A DNA stretch of 63,989 nucleotides, filler included, from Phoronis australis (GCA_002633005.1; 5 parts of 5 records of this genome joined end to end with filler, not necessarily neighbours in it), one strand, 5' to 3'; positions 2,487-60,522 are shown, numbered from the whole stretch's first letter. The notes: generated by a model from the letters alone, not told the origin. Numbers and translations are program-made.

Positions 2487-3034
2487 AGCTAAAACACGCC
2501 AAGGTTGAACGGTCTTTGTTCTTCGTGTACTGTGATATAATAGCAGTGAACTGCTTTTTTTGATATGATCTGGTTTGTGTTCCCCAACACCATGTCACGG
2601 TGTCAAAGGTCAACTTTTCGCGCATTTTCTTATCTTCGCTTTTTTTTAAATAACTAAAGATACAATAATACGATGATTTGAATAAAATACATCCAAATAG
2701 CAATACCTTGAAGATATTATTGCAATTTAACATACTTGGACCTTGCAAATTACACTTTAAAGATACAAGTTTGACATGCAATTGAAATTGACTGAAGTCA
2801 ACCCAAGCATCGTGTATATTTTTGCTCCTCAATGGCTTTGAAAAACTGTCTTGAGTAGCAATGAAAATTATAGTTGTAAATTCAATCAATATCTTTTGGG
2901 AAAAATTTCAAAAAGCTTGAAAATTCATTGGATGTTTTTGGGACGCAGTTGGAGATTTTGAGGGAATAAAATATTCACCTCCTAAAATTTACCAGTGGAA
3001 TATATAACACAAGTATTATATTCAAGCACGGCCG

Positions 3035-3040
3035 TTTATT
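3035..3040 (-). promoter_or_regulatory. Likely polyadenylation signal of the lectin gene
   Basis: AATAAA on the minus strand about 100 nt downstream of the stop at 3139. Confidence 0.5.
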
Positions 3041-3138
3041 TCAACATTGTCTTTAATAGTACGTAAATTTCATCAATGCTTTTCAATACATAATTGAGTA
3101 CTTTTTAAGCCATGACGTAGACGCCGTACCATTTTGAG

Positions 3139-3230
3139 TTAAAGTTCACATATGTAACGGGCTTTGTCGCTGCACCCCTTGCTTTCCACGTTCTGGTTAC
3201 TGGGATTGAAGACCGTGCAAGCATTTCCGT
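3139..3230 (-). CDS. C-type lectin gene, last coding exon: C-terminal half of the CTLD
   Basis: tcttttacag|AC GGA AAT GCT TGC... reads (D)GNACTVFNPSNQNVESKGCSDKARYICEL*. It supplies the last three CTLD cysteines and the YICE motif. Too short for the ORF track. Confidence 0.85.
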
Positions 3231-3304
3231 CTGTAAAAGAGCCAAAGGTCACGTGGTATGAGTAATTCAGTAACATTCAAATGCTTGAGTTGCCGATTAC
3301 TTAC

Positions 3305-3319
3305 CTGAAAACACTACAT
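3305..3319 (-). CDS. Putative 15-nt micro-exon (DVVFS) of the C-type lectin gene
   Basis: ag|ATGTAGTGTTTTCAG|gtaagt has a consensus donor and is phase 1-1. It leaves a 74-nt intron to the last exon. Confidence 0.45.
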
Positions 3320-4037
3320 CTCTTGGTGTTGGTGAAAGAAATATATATATTCATTAGAACAAAATTTTAGTTCGAGAGAAGTTCTTTTGTTTTGCGTCAA
3401 CCAATATTTCGAGTATAGTGGAGTATTTGTGGTTATTCGCCTGTGCGACCCTAGCGGAAGTTTTATTCAGACATTCACTAGACTTACATACGACGGATTT
3501 CGGGAGGCAATGTCCTACCACATTGGAAGGACCAAAAACAAACGCGACCGACATGTCATTTGTATGCGTTACGCAAACATAAACCTTCAGAAATTGTCAT
3601 TCGCTCACCCCCACCCCTTCCCCCAATCCCATCATTCATACAACTTTGAACTGCAAAATATCAAGTTTAATACAGAATATGTAATTAATTTTACTGGTCC
3701 TAAAAACTAAGCATGCTGTGTATGTTGATGTACACTGGACGTGATTCATGAAGAGGACTTTTTCATTATTTCAATTTACAATGCTGTGGAAATGTATGGT
3801 TAGCTATTTAGCAATTTGTGATAAATGCAGAGCAAATTTCTTGTCGAACGACTACACTAAAAAGAATACAACTAAAAGTACATACTCAATTCTGTTTATT
3901 TAAAAACGCAGCTTTATTTTAAAAGAACGATGCTACTACAGTTTGTTTGTTACACAGTGTTCGAATTAAATATTCAGCTACAGGGCCGACAATCTATAGG
4001 AGTCAAACTTTGAAACGAGGAAAAGGTAAATTCTTAC

Positions 4038-4568
4038 CAACAACATTCCACACCTCAACGTCGGTCCATTTAACACTCCTTCCACAGCTGAGTGTGCCCT
4101 TGTAGGAGGCATGATGGCAGTAACCGTTAGACGGAAAGTACTCGTTGGTGCTGTCATACGAGTAGCTACTACTGAAGAACATCAGGTCATGACCCCCGCC
4201 AAATGCTGGACCCTTGTGGTAGAAATCGGACATAGCGTGCGTTTGATAATTGCTGTTTATGCTGTATCTGACTGATGTGCATCCTTGTCTGCACAGCCGA
4301 AACACGAAAGCGTTGCTGTCCTTCTTGTAGTCGTTGACACTTGTCCAGGAGACAGAGGCATAACCACCGAACGTGGTTCCGCTCGTTGAATCTTTCCCAA
4401 TAGAGATGGTTGGGCCCTTATTGTTGCATCTGCTGTGAAACACTGAAGCGTTCATAGCATCACGTGATGCCCTGTACAGGAGCTTGAATGTCTTTCCTGG
4501 GAACCATTTTTCCAGCAAAGCTACTTGGTCTGTAGTCAATAGGTTTGAACTAACTATGGCTCCCATGT
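4038..4568 (-). CDS. 531-nt phase 1-1 exon encoding a complete TLDc domain
   Basis: TLDc motifs FKLLYRASRD, FHSRCNNKGPT, FGGYASVSW, DSNAFVF, GPAFGGGHDL and DVEVW. Acceptor tttgaattttag|AC ATG at 4568; donor GTT G|gtaag after 4038. Confidence 0.9.
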
Positions 4569-4971
4569 CTAAAATTCAAACGTATCATAGGTGTATCATC
4601 CGTGCTTCCAAGGTGACACAGTAATTTTCGGTATTGCAATTATAGCGAAACAAGAAAAATGGTAGAACCCGAAATATCAGTTTACACCATTTTTGTCCCA
4701 GGAACATGTTAAAAAGTAGCCGAAATGAAACGCGAAAACTGAGGAGTTTATTCCTCAACGATACTGGTAAAAATTACAGACAGTTAACAGTTCCTTGACT
4801 GAATGAAGCGTAAAATAATATAGTGTATACAGCTAATCTGTGTTGTAAGATGATAAGATTTTGAAATAAGCACAAGTGTTCACTTGGTGGTCATGCATCA
4901 TGAAGAGCCGAAGATTTCTTTTACTAAAATGCTTCTGAAAATTTGTCATTTACTGCCTTTGGTATTAATAC

Positions 4972-5572
4972 CTTTTTCCGAATCTTTTCCAACAGCCCAT
5001 ACGGTGTCCCCTTTTTTCAGCGATTCTTGACCAAGGAAGGATTTCAAACGATGAGAGTCCAAAGGAACTACGTGAGAATTGTCTTCAAGGCATTTCCTTT
5101 TTGCGGTTCCCCAATCCACTGAAACGTTGCTCAGTTTGAAACACGAATGTCCAAAGTAACGATATTGACTTGGGCAGTATAGTTTACTTAGAATGCGCTC
5201 GAATGAGGATGATGACATTTGTCGTTGGCGAATCACCTCCTGTAGTACCCCGGTAGCATTAAGTAGTGAAAAGATATTGCGTAACTCTGTGTGAAAGCTA
5301 TTCATGGTTCTTAGAACCTTTGACTGAAAGTCTCGGTTCTTAAGTCGTTCCTCGCCGCTTTTGTTTAGCATTTCTTCAAGTTCCGATTGAAAGTGAGTTA
5401 TGGTTTTTAGAATGGTCGATTGGAAAATCCGGTTGCTTTTTTCTTGCTCTTTCAATAAAGAGATTACGGATTGTTCGAGAACAGATCTCTTCGCGGCAGC
5501 CGAAGTCGCGTGGAGACACGTGGCTTCGTGACACAGCACTACGATGACTATTACGAGATTAACAGTGAACAT
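4972..5572 (-). CDS. C-type lectin gene, coding exon 1: signal peptide, coiled-coil neck and N-terminal half of the CTLD
   Basis: The ORF starts with hydrophobic MFTVNLVIVIVVLCHEATC, has a heptad-like neck, then YCPSQYRYFGHSCFKLSNVSVDWGTAKRKCLEDNSHVV...VWAVG (CTLD C1-C3 and a WIGL-like motif). Phase-1 donor AAAG|gtatt after 4972. Confidence 0.85.
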
Positions 5573-5841
5573 TTCTACTCATGGTTTTATCGACAAGCAC
5601 ATCTAGGCAGTTTCACAACACCAACGGGCAACAAATGTCCTCAACTGGAGATTGTCAAAGTGATAGGAACCTACGTGTACCATCCTTTTATAATGTGAAC
5701 GTTTGTGATAAGAAAAATATTTCCCTCAAGGTGATATTTTTCTTCAGGCCCATAGCCAGGGGGGTTTAGGGATTCGATCGAACTCCCAACACTGAAAAGG
5801 TCCAGCCCCAGCCCATCTGTTAGAGATATGATATAGATGGA

Positions 5842-5882
5842 CAACAACAAGAACAACAACAACAATAGCAACAGCAACAACA
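5842..5882. repeat. (AAC/AGC)n microsatellite
   Basis: acaacaacaagaacaacaacaacaatagcaacagcaacaac. Confidence 0.8.
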
Positions 5883-6107
5883 AAATTATTGCAGTTACTG
5901 GTACTACTAACTACAGTTATAATTAAGTCTAAAGAATTTGCTTCTGATTGAAAGCGCTTCGCATACTCATCGGACCCTACATGGCCCCAGGGCCCAATTT
6001 CGCCCGAGTGGTGTTTTGGTTCTTGCAGACATTAGAGGAGGCTTGACATCACTCGTTGGCATTGAACGTGAGTGGCTGTTACACCGTTATCGTCGATATT
6101 ATCTGTC

Positions 6108-19000: not shown

Positions 19001-22000
19001 TAATGGATCACCCTTTTGTTTAGGTTATTGCTGTAATTCTGTTTGCCCCGCCTTCCTTTGTAAGGATTTTTGATGAATGCCATTCTTGTGAAAGTGCGAC
19101 ATGGTACAAGGAAGTCTATGCCTTGTTGTCAAAAATATTTTCTGGCACATTGTTAAANNNNNNNNNNNNNNNNNNNNNNNNNNNNNNNNNNNNNNNNNNN
19201 NNNNNNNNNNNNNNNNNNNNNNNNNNNNNNNNNNNNNNNNNNNNNNNNNNNNNNNNNNNNNNNNNNNNNNNNNNNNNNNNNNNNNNNNNNNNNNNNNNNN
19301 NNNNNNNNNNNNNNNNNNNNNNNNNNNNNNNNNNNNNNNNNNNNNNNNNNNNNNNNNNNNNNNNNNNNNNNNNNNNNNNNNNNNNNNNNNNCCCCCCCCC
19401 CCCCCCCTAGTCTATTCAAGCAAGGAGGAAAGTTCAGTTATTGTGGTCTTAGTCAAATTTTGGCAGGTTTGGTGGTGGTTTAACTTTATACTTATCCAAG
19501 CTTTGTGGGGTTGTGTGGGAAGTAACAGCTTGGTTTAAGTCAGTGTCAGGCATGGTAATGTTTTTGTGAACCTGAGCTGAGCAGACTGTTAATGTTAACT
19601 TTTACGTGATTGGTTGCGTGTTTACCTCACTTGGATCAATTGTGGTGTTTGCACATTTTTGTTGCTTACAGTAAGATTATGTAGGACTTCATCAACTTGT
19701 GGGCGTAATTTACCAAATATCTACAAAACTGTTGAATTTAACTGACGTAAAAGTATATTTTTTGAAAGTACAAAGACTGTACAATTTTATTTTTGAATTT
19801 ATACCAGTCTGCTATTGATTTGGATCACCATGTCTTTAGTAAAATGTAACAATAAACAAGGGTACAACCGTACCAAAAACGACGCTATCAATAACGTGCA
19901 AAGTTTTGTTGGATGATATCTCAGTTTTCTAAATTATTTCATTTTTATTTTATGCAACTTTCAATTGAAATTTCTTCATAAAATTCATAAAAGTACTATT
20001 TCTGTTACCGCCCCGAACCAAAGTTGACTCCTGTGACTACTTGCTGGCCAATTGTCTTCCGCAGCTTAAAGAATTATTTGAGCTTAGCCTTGAAGTCATT
20101 GGTAGAACATGGTAATTAACTCTCCTAGTTTTCCTCACAAAACTGGAACTTAGGTCAGAATTCTTGACTTGAAAGATTGATGGTGCTTGCGTCTCTTGTA
20201 CAAATTTATTGATGATTGAGGTACAATTAAGGTGATGCAAAACCAGGACTAGTTTCTATTTGTTAGAAGCAACTGCCATGCTCTTTAAGAGTTTTGATGC
20301 CTTTCTACGGCAGACGACACTAGGTGTCGCTAGAGTGCATGATTTCTTGTAGTCTGTCAAATAGATTCACTCTTGTTGTCTTCTTTGCAGAAAACGGTGA
20401 GGACGTTTATGACGAAGGAGTTTCAGGTGCGACCTCTGGTGGAGGCATGTCTGAGCTGCAGAGGACACTTAGGGCGAGACGTAATGTTATTCACGATGTG
20501 GAAGATTACGAATCACGTGAGTAACAGGACTCTATCTCATTGGTTAGAAATATTGGCTCGGGGGCAAATTGTTATGATTTTTTTTCTAGAAAGCACCATA
20601 GATTTTGGTCCCTATTCCATGTTGTTTTATTTGTTAATGGTAAAAATTCATAACCAAAAACTGTTTGAAAGAAAACCTACTTTCAAACTGCAAACAAGGT
20701 ACATACTTTAGATCGATATTTGGAAGGGCCATTGATTCGAGGACCAATAGTTTGACTATCTCCTTAACCCTTTAAAGGATCTTTGTGAGATTTGATGGAT
20801 GTGCTCATATGGAGATGGCAGCCGATGACAATGAGTTTCAGACTAATCGGATTACAGCTGTGTCCCTTGGTGTAAATTCTTTCTCCTATATCTTAGGAGT
20901 TTCTTGGCTTATTTTCATAAGATTTCGCAGATATTTTTGTGTTAAAGATTGACAACGCTACCTTCTTAATTTGGACGAGTTTGATGCCTTCTGCACCATC
21001 TATTGGCCATTTTTATCATGATGGGACCAAAAACACCCACAGAAGCACACCTTTTGCTGTGCTGTCTTGCCAGTGGACGCATGTAATGATCCTCGACATT
21101 GCTTTTGGTTAGTTTATCAGTTAATTTTCATCCGTGCAGAAGGCCAATATGCTGAAGGGTCATTATATTGAAAGGCAATTGGTTTGGAAGGGTTGTCCGA
21201 ATATGGAAAAAGTATACCAAAAGTGGTAAAAATTTCAAATGAAATTAAATGCATAACAATTTGTAATATTTTTACTGTGCTGTAGGAAAATATGCATTGG
21301 GTCTGAATAAATGGCGATTGTTTCTTAAATGGGGTTACTGAGATTTTATTGGAAATGTCGAACTAGCAGTTAAGCTAATTCCTTATCTCTGTGATTGTTT
21401 AGCCAAGTAGTTAGAAACACAGCGTATAGTGACGATGTGAATATGAAGTAGGTTGAAATTGCCAAATGTTTTGAGAATGTTTTTTGTGGCGAAAATGATT
21501 TACCGCAAACCACTGAACTGTCTCCAGTTAGTACATTGTATCTTGATGTGGTGGAGAATAACACTGCCTTGTGAGTTTGTGAGCCCGTAAGGTACGTCAC
21601 TAGTGCGAAGGTCGCCTAGTTTCAGAATTTTTTGGTTTCACAATTACAAGTTGTCAATGAAAGCAATAATTACTGCACTTTGTTTAGCATAGATGATGTT
21701 CAAATAGCATGGTTGTTGAGTTCCTGTTATACATTAGCTTAGTTAGGAGCATGCAAATACATCAGATTTCTTTAAACACCCATTGGTTACCTGAGACGGG
21801 AAGTAGCAAGCTTCAACCTGCCACCAAAGTGTCGAGAAATTCACAAATTAGAATGATGACGTCAATAAGTGCAGAGCCTTAGAGTCATCATTTTTCAGAC
21901 TGTCATCCTTTGGACCACTTGCCGGAATTTCATTTCGGATTGTCCGCCCTTCAGACCATAATGGCCCTTTGCACTGCCAAGTGAACCTCCACGAATTACG

Positions 22001-23051: not shown

Positions 23052-23139
23052 NCGGCAGACGACACTAGGTGTCGCTAGAGTGAGTGCATGATTTTTTGTA
23101 GTCTGTCAAATAGATTCACTCTTGTTGTCTTCTTTGCAG

Positions 23140-25383
23140 AAAACAGTGAGGACGTTTATGACGAAGGAGTTTCAGGTGCGACCTCTGGTGGAGGCATGTC
23201 TGAGCTGCAGAGGACACTTAGGGCGAGACGTAATGTTATTCACGATGTGGAAGATTACGAATCACGTGAGTAACAGGACTCTATCTCATTGGTTAGAAAT
23301 ATTGGCTCGGGGGCAAATTGTTATGATTTTTTTTCTAGAAAGCACCATAGATTTTGGTCCCTATTCCATGTTGTTTTATTTGTTAATGGTAAAAATTCAT
23401 AACCAAAAACTGTTTGAAAGAAAACCTACTTTCAAACTGCAAACAAGGTACATACTTTAGATCGATATTTGGAAGGGCCATTGATTCGAGGACCAATAGT
23501 TTGACTATCTCCTTAACCCTTTAAAGGATCTTTGTGAGATTTGATGGATGTGCTCATATGGAGATGGCAGCCGATGACAATGAGTTTCAGACTAATCGGA
23601 TTACAGCTGTGTCCCTTGGTGTAAATTCTTTCTCCTATATCTTAGGAGTTTCTTGGCTTATTTTCATAAGATTTCGCAGATATTTTTGTATTAAAGATTG
23701 ACAACGCTACCTTCTTAATTTGGACGAGTTTGATGCCTTCTGCACCATCTATTGGCCATTTTTATGGGACCAAAAACACCTGCAGAACAACACCATTTGC
23801 GGTGCTGTCGTGGGCGCATTTAATGCTCCACGATGTTGTGCTTGTTAGTTTATCAGTTAAATTTCATCCGTGCAGAAGGCCAATATGCTGAAGTGTCATT
23901 ATACTGAAAGGCAAGTGGTTTGAAAGGCTTGTCCGAATTTGGAAAAAGTATACCAAAGGTGGTAAAAATTTCAAATAAAATTAAATGCATAACAATTTGT
24001 AATACTTTTACTGTGCTGTAGGAGAATATGCATTCTGTCTGAATAAATGGCGATTGTTTCTTAAATGGGTTTACTGAGATTTTATTGGAAATGTCGAACC
24101 TGCAAGGTAATTCCTTATCTCTCTGGTTTAGCCAAATTAGAAAAATAGCGTATAGCGACGATGTGAATATGAAGTAGGTTGAAATTGCCAAATGTTTTGA
24201 GAATGTTTTTTGTGGCGAAAATGATCTCCGCAAATCACTGAACTGTCTATAGTAAGTATCTTGATGTGGTGCTGGAGAATAACACTGACTGATGTGAGCA
24301 TGTGAGCCCGTAAGGTACGTCACTAGTGCGAAGGTCGCCTAGTTTTAGAATTTTTTGATTTCACAATTACAAGTTCTCAATGAAAGCAACTGCACTTTGT
24401 TTAGCATAGATGATGTTCAAATAGCATGGTTGTCGAGTTCCTGTTATACATTAGCTTAGTTAGGAGCATGCAAACACATCAGATTTCTTTAAACACCCAT
24501 TGGTTACCTGAGACGGGAAGTAGCAAGCTTCAACCTGCCACCAAAGTGTCGAGGAATTCACAAATTAGAATGATGACGTCAATAAGTGCAGAGCCGAAGA
24601 GTCATCATTTTTCAGACTGTCATCCTTTGGACCACTTGCTGGAATTTCATTTCGGATTGTCCGCCCTTCAGACCAATGGCCCTTTGCACTGCCACGTCAA
24701 CCTCCACAAATTACGCAATGTCTGGCCGGTTGTATACTGTATCATTTGTAAAACATTTCATTCTAGAATTATAGTCACTATGAGGGCTTGTTATCTAAAG
24801 TCACAAGGGTACTGATTTTTCAGTGTTGAAAGTTTGTTTGTAGGTTGTTGTTTTTGAAACATGTACTATTGTCCGTGACTTCTCTGTTTTAGCCGACAGC
24901 TTTCCCCAGCCTCCTTTGACAAGGGGGCGTTTCAGTAGCGAATTAGCGGTACCTGTTGGTGTTATTCCTAGCCAAGGCCGTCGGTTTTCTGGTGCTGCCA
25001 TCAATTCACAACAAAACCTTGGTAATAATTTGCTATTATAACCATCTTCAGTTCTGGATGTAGCATTGATACCTAGGCAGATCCAGGGGGTCAAGGGGGT
25101 CCGGACCCCTCTTATTTTTACTTTTGTGATGTCAAACCTAGAATTGTCGCATTGTTGACTTTGACCTCCTTTGATCTGCTTCCCCCCCCCCTTAAAAATT
25201 TCTGGATCCACATGTGTGATAGTAATAAATGTAATAATAACAATGTTGATTTCTAATGGTAGTGATGATCACTTTACAACTACTACAGAAGCTCATAGCA
25301 GGCCAATGTCAGTGAGTTCTAAAAGCTACGCTATCACTCATTCAACATGGTGGAACATGCACAGCGTTTCAAGTGCCTTTTAA
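23140..25383 (+). CDS. Second copy of the adaptor 3' exons (23140-23265, 24893-25021, 25289-25383)
   Basis: Same splice sites as copy 1. The last exon reads EAHSRPMSVSSKSYAITHSTWWNMHSVSSAF*, with AATAAA at about 25572. Confidence 0.6.
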
Positions 25384-32824: not shown

Positions 32825-35333
32825 TAACAACAATCTAACAACACTATAATCTACAACAGATACAAGGAGCAGCCACGTCTGGTTGAAACTTTAGTAAATC
32901 AAGCCAAAGGTGATCACCGACACAATCTTTTCAAGAAATTAACAGCATAAGCAAGAATTCCAAAGAATACTGGAACTTCATCAATAAAATACGCGGCAGT
33001 CAACAACAATCCTCCTATCCTGTCATCAACTACAATGGTAACCTAGCCTCAAGTAGTAGTGACAAGTGTGATTTGTTTCTCATTTTTTTCACGAAGAAAA
33101 GCCACATTACACCAACCGAAGTAATTACTTTCCCTTTCTTCGTGAACGTTGTGTCAATCAACTGTCTGACATCCCGGTTAATCAAACTGATGTCCGGAAG
33201 TATCTCAGTGAAATTGACACCAATAAGAATGATGGCACAGCTTTAAGAACCAGCAAGATGATCAAAATGATTGCCAACGAAATTAACATTCCCCTGACCA
33301 ATCTGTTTAGCAAACCTCTTCAGCTAGGCATTTCTCCGTCTTCTTGGAAACATGGAATTATGGTCCCTACTGTATACACAAAAAAGGCTCCAAAACTGAA
33401 ATTTCAAATTATCGCCCAATAACTTTACTTAATACCCTGTCCAAAATTTTCGAGATCAGTACGCAAAGTATTCTTACATTTCTCAAACCAAACTTTATCT
33501 ATCATCGTCAATTTTTTTATTTTTGCGTGGGAACAGCACAGTGGGACAACTTGTTGAAATAGTACATGAGATTCATTTACATTTTGAGAAGGGCGAGAGT
33601 GTCATGTCCATTTTTCTAGATATAGCTTTTGCTTTCGACTGTGTCCCTCACGACCTTCTACTTCACAAACTTCGGTCCTATGGCATTACTGGTAATCTTT
33701 TGAACGTGATCACCTCATATTTCTCTGAAAGAACATACAGTGTTCGTGTCTACGGCGTACTTTCAACTTTATCCCCTCCTGGATTGGTAAACGCAGGGGT
33801 ACCGCAGGGTAGCGTATTGGGCCCTCTTCTCTTCTTGGTTTATATTAATGACCTTCCTGATAACCTGTCATGTAGCACATACCTTTATGCAGATGACACG
33901 GCGCTTTTTTACCCCTTCGCAGGGAGCAGCCATGAATGTTCTTTGCAGCTTCAACACGACTTAAATAAACTAAGCTATTGGCCACAAGATTGGAGAATGA
34001 ATTTCAAACCAGAAAAAAGCGTTGACCTCACCTTGTCCAAATCTATTAATGATCTCTTCCTTGTTGACCCGTCTTATGACCTTAAACTTAATGATGAAAT
34101 CATTCCTAGAAAACAGTCGCACAGACATCTGGGTATACTGTTAGATGAAAAACTTTCATTCACCCCTCACGTTCAGGAGCTCGTACAAAAAACTCAGGAA
34201 CTAATTAACCCACTTAAGCTTGTCTCTCGTCCTCTGAATTCTACACATTTAGAAGTTTTGTTCAAATCCTTTGTACTTCCACACATTGATTATTGTGATA
34301 TTATATATCAGTCTGCAAATACGGGTACACTCCAACATTTGGAGAAGTTACAATATCAAGCCGCCTTACTCATAACCGGAGCTTACAGGGGATCCAATAG
34401 TGTTAAGGTTTTGAATAGTCTCAAGAGGCCCAAACTGTCTACTCGACGCAATCTTCACATGACCACATTTACTTCCAAGGTAATAAACAATGTCAACAAC
34501 GTGTCTGTCAAAAAATATTTGATCTATATACTAGACAAGGCCATCGTATTGATTTGAGATCAACCACCCCATATGCTGTTCCTCCGTCGTTCAGTCAGGC
34601 ATTCAGAAGGTCTACATTCATGGTGTGCATCAACAACTGGAAGTCTCTTCAAGTCTCTGTTAAGGAAAGCAACTCTTTTAAGAGTATAAAAAATAATTTT
34701 GGAACTGTTTTTCATAATTTTGATAACTCAACTCCATTGACTCAATTCTCCTTTACCCGCGATAACGAAATAGCATTGTACAGATCAAGATGTGGCCTTT
34801 TCCTCAACTCTGACAAGTTCAGGCACAACTTTAGCAATGTATCTCCAAACTGCAAATGTGGTGACCATCAATCTTATCCTCATATTTTCTTCAAATGTTC
34901 CCTCATCGAATACCTGAGAGACTCACTCTTTCGTGCACTCAATGATAACCAATCAATTGTTAACGCTCTCAATTCTTGTAATAATATCCCTACTAGAGTT
35001 ACATTGTTACTGAATGGTAGTCCTAACCTTGACTTCCTTCTCAACGAATTCCTTCTAAGCAACGTTTGAAATTTTTTATGTACCGTTTATCAATATTGTT
35101 GCTTCTGATTTCCCTACATGTACATATTTTTGTTTTTATATATCTGTAATTGCATATCTAAGTATTGGAATACTTATTTTATATACTACTTAATTGTATA
35201 TACCTCTATGTATATAAGTTTCATTTATGAATTGTTTAAAAACCAGATATAATGCTTCGTGGTTTCCGGGTTTGTTATTATTTCTTTGTATGTTCTGTGT
35301 ATCCTTCAATAAATATATATCACTTAAAAAAAG
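32825..35333 (+). mobile_element. 5'-truncated, frameshifted CR1/L2-group LINE (ORF2 reverse transcriptase)
   Basis: RT motifs KKGSKTEISNYRPITLL, FLDIAFAFDCVPH, GVPQGSVLGPLLFLVYINDLP, YADD and HLGI. C-terminal CKCG..HIFFKC. 3' AATAAA followed by a short A tail. No endonuclease domain seen. Confidence 0.9.
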
Positions 35334-37878: not shown

Positions 37879-40800
37879 TCAGACTGTCCCAGGAATGACC
37901 TGAATGAAGTCGAGAGCAATGTCAGATCTAGCCCTTCTTCCCCGTTTGGCTTCGAACACCACCTGCAAATAGTATATTTCTATAATAGCACGCAAAACCA
38001 ACGCAATGTAGAGCTGCAGCTCATGTAAGCCCTCTGATATAAAGCAGGTTTCACTGACGGATTGAGAGGCCGACCAATAGGGCCATGCCCCCCCCCCTAA
38101 AATCTCCCAGATTCCATTAGGCAGTTCGGGAGTGCGGTTCCCTGACAGGCAAAATCCTTGCTAATACAATGGCCTGCCCACCCGACGAGAGGTGACAATC
38201 GGGCTTTGGTAAAACGCAGGTAAATGTTGATATTGTGTGAGATTAGGCTCAGAGAAGCGCCTCATTATGCAGCGGTTAAATTGTCGGCCTCTCATTCTCA
38301 AGTAATAACAAAATGACAGTAATTTCCAACACCGGAAATCGATTTTGACCTGATTAAGGACCATTCAGCAGTAGAAGTGTTAAAAGTCATGTTTTTCGTC
38401 TCGCACGTAAAAGAGGTTGAATGCTATGTGGTGAAAACCATCATTTCATTCAAGTACCCAACACTCACCTATATTTGCACAGATCGATTTAACCTGCTCG
38501 ACCTACATGTAATTCCAAATCGCCACATTCTTTTCTTGCGGACCACTGTTACAAGCAAAAGTGTATTGCAAATATGTTCAACCGAATAAATCTGTTCACA
38601 AGGCAACCTGTGGCTGCACCATGTGACGTAATGGATATAAGTCTGGGTTCGGGTCTTGTTTGGGACTGAAATTTGTTCAGACCTATATTCATCCAGTTAC
38701 GAAAGGGGCCACAGGTGGCGTGCTTACCAGTCTTCAAAATGTTTACGACTTATATTTTCGAGCCAGCCTAAGATTTACTTAGCAAAGCCATCATAGCAAA
38801 CAGTGGTTACCCGCCACTTCTTCTTTTTAAGTCGTGACACGAGCGTAATTGGGGAGTCTCTGACAGCAGTATACTTGGTAAAGATTTGGTATGCATTGAT
38901 ACATCAAATAGAACTCCCATAGGTGTACATTGATTCGTAAAATATAAGCAAGGCCGAAATTTCAGGAAATTATGACAACAAAATGTCGACAATTCATGTA
39001 TGTGCTACGGACCTTCGAAAAAAAAATAGGTGAATGGATATGTGAAGCAAAACCTAGATCACAATTCAGGAAAATACGATTGAACCATAAATTGTCAAAA
39101 ACTCTGCGCAATTGTATTTCATTAGCGAACAATGGATTAGGAATGGTGAGGAAATAATTGTATTCTAAATTACTTGGAGAATGTCATATTAAGACAAGAT
39201 TTTCTTTTTGAGCAAGTATTCAATTCTTTGAAATGCGTATTTAGATTTTATTCAAATTGGAAATTGGTCGAAGTTTTTTAAGATAATTCAGTAAAGTTTT
39301 AGATCCCGTGTCGCACAATGGTCGATTATGGATGTCTTTGTCCTAGTGGGTTACTAATCCTTTAACTGAATTAAATAAAAATGTGGCCATGATAAAAATG
39401 AAGAATTTATAGCTGCTTAATTTATTTTTAGAACGTTTTGACAGTCCGTTTCCAGTGGTGGGATTTTAATAGACTTTAAATCTTATTAGGGAACAAAACC
39501 AATGGGAAGCACATAATTGCAAACTTTTGCAAGATCGAGAGTGTCTGGTAAAAAGTGACGAGTTTCCACAATGAAAGCTTACATAAGCACATGCCATGCG
39601 CTACCGTTGTGTAGGTTTTTTATTACCCTACATCTAAGCGAGTATACAATTATCCTTCTAATTTTGCTCTCGATTAACCATTGTTTTCTAAATGCAACGG
39701 CAAGGGCTAAACAACGGGAAACGAATACATAGTTTTATGTCATTTATCTCTAAAGTGACAAAATTCATCAACATAGTAATGAACCTATAACACTTTGGGA
39801 CTAAATGGGGTATCTTCCATCTCGGTTCCACAAATTTTTAGTACCGAATGTGTTATTTCCAAAGGAGGTGCCAACTTGCTTTGCGAAGTACTTGTTCAAC
39901 CCTACCTGCTTGATGTCCGTTCGGTCCACTCGAATGCTGCCAACGTGCCAGGAATTCCCTTGGTTTCCCTTTTTTGACCAGATGGGAGACCCCATTGCTC
40001 CGTTGGCGTCCACGAGTCTAACGCTCAACGACCCCATTGTCTTCCCGTACATATGGTAAGCCCACGTCAATGTAAATGGCGTTCCTGTAATAGTTTTGGT
40101 TGAATTTACCTCAGAAACAACTGCAGTAATAATATTAAACGTAAGGATTAATCAAGAGTATTCGAGATGAATGTTGTAAATTTAAATGTGACATAGTAAT
40201 TTGTCAGCTTCAATTGGTGCGGAATGAGGTCATCAAAAGTAACATAACCTACATGTACTGCCAAAGCGATTTCGCAATTGTTTCTGCTTCTTAGTTCCAG
40301 AAAGTAGTGCCAAATATTATAGTGCATGCGTGATAAGTTCATTGTTTGCCACAACTCCTTTCCAACTCAAAGTTCTTTCTTGTGCACCTTATTTCATGGC
40401 TGCACGACCAATAATAACTGTATATTTGCCGTTGACTATCACCTCTTATTGTCAACGGAAGCGTGTATATGCAAATAATTGTGAATCATGCCATAAAACA
40501 TAATTGGTCCTCTTTATTAATTCGATTCCGTTGTGGGTTATTTAGTTGATAAGTTATTCAAAAAATCCAACGGTGAAAAGCAAAAGTGCTGCGGGATTTA
40601 TTTTTATACACGTTGCTTTGAAAGTTACGGCGTTTTAAGCTTTGCTTATCCTGGTTTGAATATGAGTGGCAAAGATCTCAACCTTTATCCAAGTCTTTAG
40701 TGCACTGATCATGTTTTTGTAAAAAGGAAACCGAAGCCCGTGCAGTTACGCGGGGGTGTTCCTTTGTCCCGACTTAGGCTTACAACTACTTGCCCACAGA

Positions 40801-58960: not shown

Positions 58961-60522
58961 CAAAGGAAAAAATTCTTTACTTATTTCCAACAAAAGTCGT
59001 TGCAAAAATTGCAGTTTTTGTATTCTTCAAAGGACAATAGCTTAACAGAAAATAATGGAAACTGCGCCAAATATTGATTTATGACATCTGTACATAATAA
59101 ACTAACGATAGACTAAAATTTTGTAAATGTTTATTTTTTGAAAAAAAAAAGAATTGTCACACTTTTGAAGCGCGAGTCATAAAACAACTGCCATCTGTCG
59201 GATTATTTCGTGGGTAGTTTGACTATAATCAAGTAAACACAAGGCGAGGATGAGAACAGTGATCGTTTATTCGACTTCCAGCGATAAGAAACCGGAATGC
59301 CGGGAGCGTCACCTAGTGGTGAACATAGATAATACAACACCATCGAGAGGTTTTGCAAGAACACAGTATAGTTACTTTTTTAACTGCCTTACCAGGGAAG
59401 AAGTCTTTCAGACACCTGAGTGCCTGCTGCTTAGTCATCTCCAACTGTTCTGTACTCTTGACTGTGTCATCACTAGTCATGAGGACACCTTTTGGCCAGA
59501 TAACTAACCACAACTGGGACAAGTAGTAGGCAAATCGGTCACGACTTGTCAGCTCGTCAATTTCTTTATGAAGCCAGCTGGAAAAGGGATAAGACCAGTT
59601 GGACTAGCAAAATGGTCATACATTATAAAGCAGAGATCAGCGATGTTCTTGGTTATCAGATCTTTTTTTTCTCGCAGGTTTGAAGATGGCAATTCAAAAT
59701 GAAGTAATAGATATAGATATTCTTTCCACTGTATTTATTCATACAAAGATTCACATTAAAAGACATTGTTAATATAGAAACAACAAAAATCACACCGTGT
59801 ATTTTTTACATATATAACTAAATAGTACATGATTTGGACAGATTGTGATTCACAGGGTATAAATTCATATTTCAGAATCAATAATTCTCCATTTTGACAG
59901 CTCACATCTTCACATTGACCGCTGCTACAGTAACATGATTTTAATTCTTTTTAAAAACTGTGAAGTGATGGAAAATAATATCATTGTGATTTATCTTGGG
60001 ATCATCTTGTTCATTAACCATTCATTACCACTGAGCCACCAACACGTCATCAAATATTTTAAGCCTTTTTTACGTCATCCATATTTTGACGTCACTTTTG
60101 ATTTTACATGACCGAAAAATGTAAACCAACAAGAGAATGCAATCCTGCCTCAAGGCATCATAGTTCCTTTCATCACACCATTACACAAAGTCAAAAATGT
60201 TCAGAAATTCAATACAGGTCACTTGCGCGGACTTTAGCCCATGCACGCAGAGTGTGATGACACACATTTTGTGATTGTACTGATAAAACGATGTGACGTT
60301 TATTGGTTGTTTTGCAATAAAACCATCGTTGTGTGACCACAAAACATATCCTTCCCAAAATATAATTGAATGTTTCTTTATTTTTTTCAAGCATCAAATG
60401 AAATCTTTCCACATTTTCAGTATAAAACTGGTAACTGTCTTACCAAACATGTAATTGACATATGATCAAGAGCCTAACAGCCTCCTTTCATGAATTACTT
60501 AACACATGTAATCAAGTAATAA

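Follow-up and report, generated by a model that had tools for sequence, protein, structure and literature searches.

In Phoronis australis, a C-type lectin domain (CTLD) is almost certainly interrupted by a complete TLDc domain, so that two halves of one fold flank the whole of another. The gene lies on the minus strand of a 63,989-nucleotide stretch of DNA (GCA_002633005.1; five records joined end to end with filler), which is called the window here and from whose first letter all positions are counted. Its three exons, once spliced, would yield one 407-residue, likely secreted protein.

Gene Structure and Splicing

The positions of the exons, introns and other features are listed in Table 1. 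A first-pass annotation of the window had joined two separately called ORFs (4946-5572 and 4003-4566) and an uncalled exon (3139-3230) into one gene, and had read from it the order signal peptide, neck, N-terminal CTLD half, TLDc domain, C-terminal CTLD half. The coordinates were right, and the junction reads that include exon 2 carry this order in a single spliced gene. The phases are also as it had given them. The TLDc exon is 531 nt long with phase 1 at both ends, and the frame stays open whether the exon is included (407 aa) or skipped (230 aa). The spliced protein contains six CTLD-type cysteines, at residues 133, 144, 161, 382, 397 and 405. Seven read ends are stacked at 5645 in run X3.

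Table 1. Features of the TLDc-CTLD gene and its transcript, in window coordinates.
Feature	Position	Strand	Description
Likely core promoter	5658..5692	-	TATA-like box 5692-5686 and initiator-like element 5663-5658; found by motif search, putative function
Exon 1, coding part	4972..5572	-	601 nt, phase 1; predicted signal peptide, helical neck, CTLD N-half
Neck length difference	5254..5298	-	In-frame 45 nt (15 aa), absent from most reads; 153 and 99 reads skip the stretch
CTLD N-half	4972..5176	-	aa 133-200; cysteines 133, 144, 161; stops just past the WIGL-position Trp (codon at 4999)
Intron 1	4569..4971	-	403 nt, GT..AG, phase 1; junction 4972>4568 with 224, 124 and 2 reads in the three raw RNA runs
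Exon 2	4038..4568	-	531 nt, symmetric phase 1-1; complete TLDc domain
Ala codon at a near-invariant TLDc glycine	4456..4458	-	Putative equivalent of mouse Ncoa7 G815
Intron 2	3231..4037	-	807 nt, GT..AG, phase 1; contains candidate mini-exon 3319-3305; junction 4038>3230 with 207, 130 and 3 reads in the three raw RNA runs, plus a contig from the fourth
Exon 3, coding part	3139..3230	-	92 nt; CTLD C-half, cysteines 382, 397, 405; without WND motif
3' UTR	3034..3138	-	AATAAA at 3040-3035; reads start at 3034 in X2 and X3

No second copy of the gene is present within the window, and a scan of 58 of the window's 66 long ORFs found no related gene among the neighbours. A MAM-domain exon (39804-40151, minus strand), a sorting-nexin C-terminal exon (59316-59603, minus strand) and a reverse-transcriptase fragment (33433-34554, plus strand) have no visible tie to the TLDc-CTLD gene; together with the spliceosomal-type introns, these elements mark the stretch as most likely animal DNA. 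Positions 20343-20708 and 23092-23457 are near-identical duplicates around short N runs, possibly a local duplication or an assembly artefact.

Four runs were mapped at 88% likeness: three raw RNA runs from one study, with 18-19% of each run analysed, and a set of contigs. A junction was reported when it had three reads from two starts. Both inclusion junctions are present in all three raw RNA runs, with totals of 350 and 340 reads, and read depth in X2 and X3 is some hundreds over the exons and less than 4 over the introns. A junction that skips exon 2 (4972>3230 or 4972>3319) is not among the eight reported in the three runs of this study. Set against the 350 and 340 inclusion reads, its absence indicates that exon 2 behaves as constitutive in the samples read. 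Skipping would amount to fewer than three reads per run, and a junction of four reads at a depth of about 330 was reported, so skipping is likely below about 1-2% in X2 and X3. The junction check that the first-pass annotation had called for thus found 4972>4568 and 4038>3230, and found neither 4972>3230/3319 nor any use of 3319. For this gene, these samples lend no support to its idea that alternative splicing switches the TLDc domain on and off; the word cassette fits the phases of exon 2 only, and the splicing seen is constitutive inclusion. The candidate mini-exon in intron 2 is ruled out by a depth below 1 over 3284-3397 and by the lack of any junction at 3319.

Mapped reads number 206, 159 and 5 per million records in the three runs, a roughly 30-40-fold spread between samples, which indicates that expression depends on the sample. 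The reads come from different individuals under the same species label and are mostly 95-99% alike to the window (at least 95% for 2,276 of the 2,628 reads of X2). The 45-nt stretch of the neck that most of them lack is not an intron, as it has no GT/GC..AG ends in any of three registers, and it is likely a length difference between alleles or paralogs. Because the reads come from other individuals and most are without this stretch, the expressed gene is a near-identical allele or a close paralog of the one in the window. Low read depth on both strands flanks the gene at 2600-2830 and 5790-6000 and may reflect repeats or a neighbouring transcript.

The N-terminus and the CTLD Halves

The predicted signal peptide covers about residues 1-24, with a hydrophobicity peak of 3.33 in the first 30 residues, and this hydrophobic N-terminus suggests that the protein is likely secreted. 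The helical neck, at about residues 28-130, contains an internal repeat of 32 residues and a heptad pattern of modest strength, in which no more than 6 of 8 a/d positions fit; judged by its sequence the neck likely oligomerises. Four N-glycosylation sequons are found in the spliced protein.

A PDB search with the final 76 residues encoded by exon 1 gave 114 matches at E ≤ 10, the lowest E being 9.7e-8. The best 60 of the 114 are all CTLD proteins by name, and the CTLDs of dectin-2, mincle, PLA2R and DC-SIGN are among the matches. The top ESM Atlas matches for exon 1 are Lectin_C clusters at 0.88, which we take as a lead only. By the PDB and Atlas matches, the N-terminal CTLD strands and the two helices are present with cysteines C0, C0' and C1. 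Both PDB and profile alignments place the tryptophan near the end of exon 1 at the WIGL position, and the three residues that follow it are degenerate. An alternative reading, in which WAVG corresponds to the W..GEP stretch further along the loop, is disfavoured by the profile alignment, which places WAVG at the WIGL position, though at low score.

Exon 3 alone has a weak Lectin_C match (positions 81-106, E 0.034) that falls below the Pfam cut-off, and its five PDB matches at E ≤ 10 are all CTLD proteins (CD94 or mannose receptor). C3, C2 and C4 stand in CTLD spacing, so that the profile support for this half is weak but consistent. When the halves are joined, the resulting loop-less CTLD scores 9.1 bits against a bacterial CTLD profile, compared with 7.0 for the best of 200 shuffles.

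The long loop of a CTLD normally bears the Ca2+ sites and the EPN/QPD motif, and it is described as a variable, independently evolving region of ligand specificity (PMC7618208). With the insert removed, the window's protein has 13 residues between the WIGL-position tryptophan and C3, versus 38 in the canonical coral CTLD of the Stylophora pistillata protein P0210, and the TLDc domain therefore replaces nearly all of the long loop. The first-pass annotation had put the TLDc domain inside this loop. The position stands, while a loop retained around the insert does not; the TLDc domain is found in its place. That annotation was correct in seeing no sugar motif, as neither EPN nor QPD occurs in the spliced protein sequence. 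The WND motif of beta-4 is likewise absent from exon 3, which has VES at that place. The loss of the long loop, EPN/QPD and WND makes this a predicted CTLD-fold scaffold and not a Ca2+-dependent lectin, and a form that skipped exon 2 would be a loop-less CTLD rather than a working lectin.

The TLDc Domain

Exon 2 matches the Pfam TLD model (PF07534) with 84.3 bits (cut-off 24.5) over positions 4-169 of 170, at E 1.2e-23 to 1.6e-23, and is the only one of the three exons to pass a Pfam cut-off. It has four PDB matches at E < 0.001, all to mEAK-7, one of them at E 6.3e-6. The conserved TLDc core is kept, including the Cys, FGGY, GPxFGGG and EV motifs, the buried glycines and the C-terminal Glu. 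The conserved cysteine is present in 60 of 60 aligned TLDc rows; the insert contains five cysteines in all, an odd count.

One near-invariant glycine is replaced. Its column has Gly in 59 of the 60 rows and Ala in the window's protein only. These rows were chosen from the matches of this search. As NCOA7 and OXR1 are not among them, we infer equivalence to mouse Ncoa7 G815 from position: the site aligns with the HGxS glycine of mEAK-7 and precedes the next conserved glycine by 30 residues, as G815 precedes G845 in Ncoa7. The Ncoa7 G815A mutant is reported to be soluble and to have lost V-ATPase binding (PMC8608904). The exchange may therefore be a sign of changed TLDc function.

Comparisons with PDB and Pfam profiles did not connect TLDc by sequence with a known recognition fold. 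Kinship with ficolin or fibrinogen-like heads in particular has no support from these sequence profiles, as no such match occurs among 53 PDB sequences (E ≤ 10) or in Pfam for 34 members.

Related Transcripts from Outside the Window

Divergent reads with a joint at window position 3214 carry an exon-3-like sequence, one codon shorter, that is spliced to a TLDc end (19, 21 and 4 reads). An exon-3-like sequence is also joined to a different upstream sequence without TLDc (32 and 18 reads). This upstream sequence reads KPQSN in frame, has no acceptor AG at its end and does not occur in the window, and its Lys is as far from the junction as is the Lys at the end of exon 1. The exon-3-like variant on the non-TLDc joint matches the one in the TLDc joint of 4 reads. 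The related transcripts retain the exon-3 cysteine. At least one expressed paralog is thus located outside the window, and the reads suggest a TLDc-less relative, formed through skipping or as a separate gene; the non-TLDc joint is known from a 30-letter consensus, which is too short to tell one from the other.

Bacterial Proteins with the Same Nesting

Two of the 150 best TLDc matches, P0055 and P0029, have a CTLD that contains a TLDc domain immediately behind the EP motif. In P0055 the nested stretch covers 307 residues (4571-4877), with Lectin_C at 19-94 and TLD at 104-268 of the stretch, and in P0029 it lies at about 3860-4115. The 307-residue stretch led to locus L007 (L007:6001-6921), a reading frame of 6,000 aa with abundant Cu-binding_MopE repeats. 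Such repeats and several TLDc domains characterise a family of giant bacterial proteins (P0055, P0029, P0160; L007, L012-L020, L023, L024). A match over nearly the whole stretch occurs in at least 12 of the 107 genomes of the bacterial class to which G001 belongs, some of which are near-identical pairs, so that the independent cases are fewer. From the repeats we presume that this class may be Myxococcota. In P0029 at about 3690-3830, a CTLD has another or larger insert at the same loop site, as does L021, where the CTLD halves are about 290 residues apart. No TLD-plus-Lectin_C cluster was found for the bacterial nested query in the ESM Atlas, which covers clusters of at least 50 (best match 0.78).

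A structure was predicted from aligned sequences, 11 of them nested and 27 with TLDc only. The model has a mean pLDDT of 89.6 and a pTM of 0.64; single-sequence folding of the P0055 stretch gave a pLDDT of 33. Solved CTLDs superpose on its residues 1-307 with Z 20.3 and rmsd 1.8 for 125 aligned positions, TLDc on residues 96-271 (Z 22.0, rmsd 2.0), and Foldseek recovers both folds. The CTLD is closed around the insert in this predicted bacterial structure, so a CTLD can plausibly close around a TLDc domain. By analogy, the two CTLD halves of the P. australis protein likely do the same.

Searches with the P. australis sequences found no close relative of this layout. Among longer proteins, exon 1 was matched by none of 612 candidates and the TLDc exon by 9 of 395, none with Lectin_C. 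The window's CTLD halves are absent from the best 150 of 8,211 cluster representatives, all of which are at most 46% identical, and a metagenome search returned six loci with distant TLDc only. A literature search, covering mostly open-access papers, found no published description of a TLDc domain inside a CTLD in animals or bacteria. Both domains are known, and the nested layout appears to be undescribed. The first-pass annotation, which knew of no described protein of this kind, agrees with this search; the nesting is not unique, as the giant bacterial proteins share it.

Origin of the Nested Architecture

The TLDc exon is symmetric in phase 1, and several fish CTLD genes are reported to have an intron downstream of WIGL (PMC514892). 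Together these features fit exon shuffling into such an intron, and the TLDc exon likely entered in this way, through an intron lying just downstream of WIGL.

Whether the animal and bacterial forms share an origin is a separate question. Phylogenetic reconstruction groups the 11 bacterial TLDc rows with support of 100/96 and leaves the window's domain outside that group, unplaced on a long branch. A single origin, by transfer or by ancient descent, would account for the identical domains and nesting order; moreover, the row most like the window's TLDc domain in the 60-row set is a bacterial nested one (40% identity), and a single clade of the window's and the bacterial nested TLDc domains is not rejected by an AU test (p 0.193). 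We nevertheless regard it as quite improbable. In the bacterial proteins WIGL is intact, the loop continues as far as the EP motif before the insert begins, and the C3-C2 pair is absent; the animal insert comes after the WIGL position, with an intron at either border. These differences in insertion site, intron boundaries and the C3-C2 pair would favour two origins.

Possible Function

The nested protein is probably a secreted oligomer in which TLDc domains serve as binding surfaces. The helical neck would oligomerise and so cluster the CTLD scaffolds, each of which would present a TLDc domain where the sugar-binding loop has been lost. The TLDc domains would then form a Ca2+-independent, multivalent surface for an extracellular ligand, most likely microbial or matrix, rather than for the V-ATPase. 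The steps differ in strength: the nested architecture is nearly certain, secretion and closure of the CTLD are likely, and the ligand-binding role of TLDc, which we infer, is the weakest step.

The symmetry of exon 2 would also allow a switch, in which splicing, in a paralog or in tissues outside the sample, would produce either a head tipped by TLDc or a bare CTLD without its loop. In the related transcripts the exon-3-like sequence is joined both to a TLDc end and to the KPQSN sequence, which resembles the end of exon 1, and its variant on the latter joint is that of the 4-read TLDc joint. For the gene itself the reads speak otherwise, with no 4972>3230 junction against the many inclusion reads and the low bound on skipping in X2 and X3, and the short consensus of the non-TLDc joint may stem from a separate TLDc-less paralog. 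We consider such a switch unlikely. It is distinctly unlikely that the TLDc domain has an extracellular redox or oxidative-stress role, with the CTLD and the neck confined to targeting or stabilising it. TLDc proteins do guard against oxidative stress, and some are immune-induced (PMC5614904); the conserved TLDc cysteine is kept in an insert that has five. That review, however, reports no enzymatic activity of OXR1 or of TLDc (PMC5614904), G815A also weakened the stress protection by Ncoa7-B (PMC8608904) where the window has Ala, and the cysteines of a secreted protein would likely be disulfide-bonded.

The CTLD halves could be a decaying remnant that does not fold, with a secreted neck and TLDc head doing the work, as the low scores of the C-half (E 0.034) and of the joined CTLD (9.1 bits), the degenerate WIGL and the loss of all Ca2+ motifs might indicate. 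All six cysteines are nonetheless in CTLD spacing, both halves match CTLDs, the related transcripts keep the exon-3 cysteine and the bacterial counterpart is predicted to close, which together make decay very improbable. An intracellular V-ATPase regulator like NCOA7, OXR1 or mEAK-7 is scarcely credible: the domain is a true TLDc whose four PDB matches at E < 0.001 are all mEAK-7, but the signal-peptide-like N-terminus, the sequons, the disulfide-type CTLD and the Ala at the putative G815 site all argue against it.

The preferred reading, a secreted oligomer with TLDc binding surfaces, departs from the settings in which TLDc has been studied, namely as a cytosolic V-ATPase binder and stress-protection module with no known enzyme activity (PMC8608904, PMC5614904). 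With TLDc at the ligand-facing site of a predicted secreted lectin fold, and with a change putatively equivalent to one that blocks V-ATPase binding, the protein offers a small, expressed test case for extracellular binding by TLDc. A broader and more doubtful generalisation is that TLDc is an unrecognised extracellular ligand-binding module, grafted twice (in an animal and in bacteria) into the CTLD long loop, where it would replace calcium-sugar recognition; the animal family, which would also have TLDc-less, loop-less heads through a paralog or skipping, would then carry interchangeable tips. The bacterial occurrence of the same nesting suggests that the long loop of the CTLD repeatedly serves as a socket into which whole domains are set. 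The gene also illustrates how split domains escape annotation: a Pfam cut-off is passed here by the TLDc exon only.

Comparison with Known Systems

Tetranectin (PDB 1htn), the collectins and lectins with DC-SIGN-type necks resemble the window's protein in having a signal peptide, a helical neck and a six-cysteine CTLD. The window's protein differs from them in that a 177-residue TLDc exon stands for the long loop and that it has no EPN/QPD motif, no WND motif and no collagen region. OXR1, NCOA7, TBC1D24, mEAK-7/TLDC1, TLDC2 and IFI44 (PF07534) share with it a complete TLDc domain with the conserved motifs; the window's TLDc, by contrast, is predicted to be secreted, is nested in another domain and has Ala at the putative G815 site.

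TLDc domains are found beside extracellular domains in corals (EGF, and Lectin_C in P0210) and choanoflagellates (FN3), several of them in proteins with signal-like N-termini, so a secreted TLDc is not unique by itself. P0026, a protein with a signal-peptide-like N-terminus, combines four TLDc domains with EGF-like and MACPF domains. The coral EGF-TLDc proteins and P0210 (S. pistillata LOC111347279; Lectin_C, EGF, TLD) are animal cases of this neighbourhood, but their domains are in tandem, and the CTLD of P0210 is whole with a full loop. The giant bacterial proteins share the nesting itself, as their TLDc domain lies within the region of the long loop and the CTLD resumes past the insert. They differ in being mostly 5,400-6,400 aa long, in bearing the insert after the EP motif with the first half of the loop intact, and in having neither the C3-C2 pair nor a neck.
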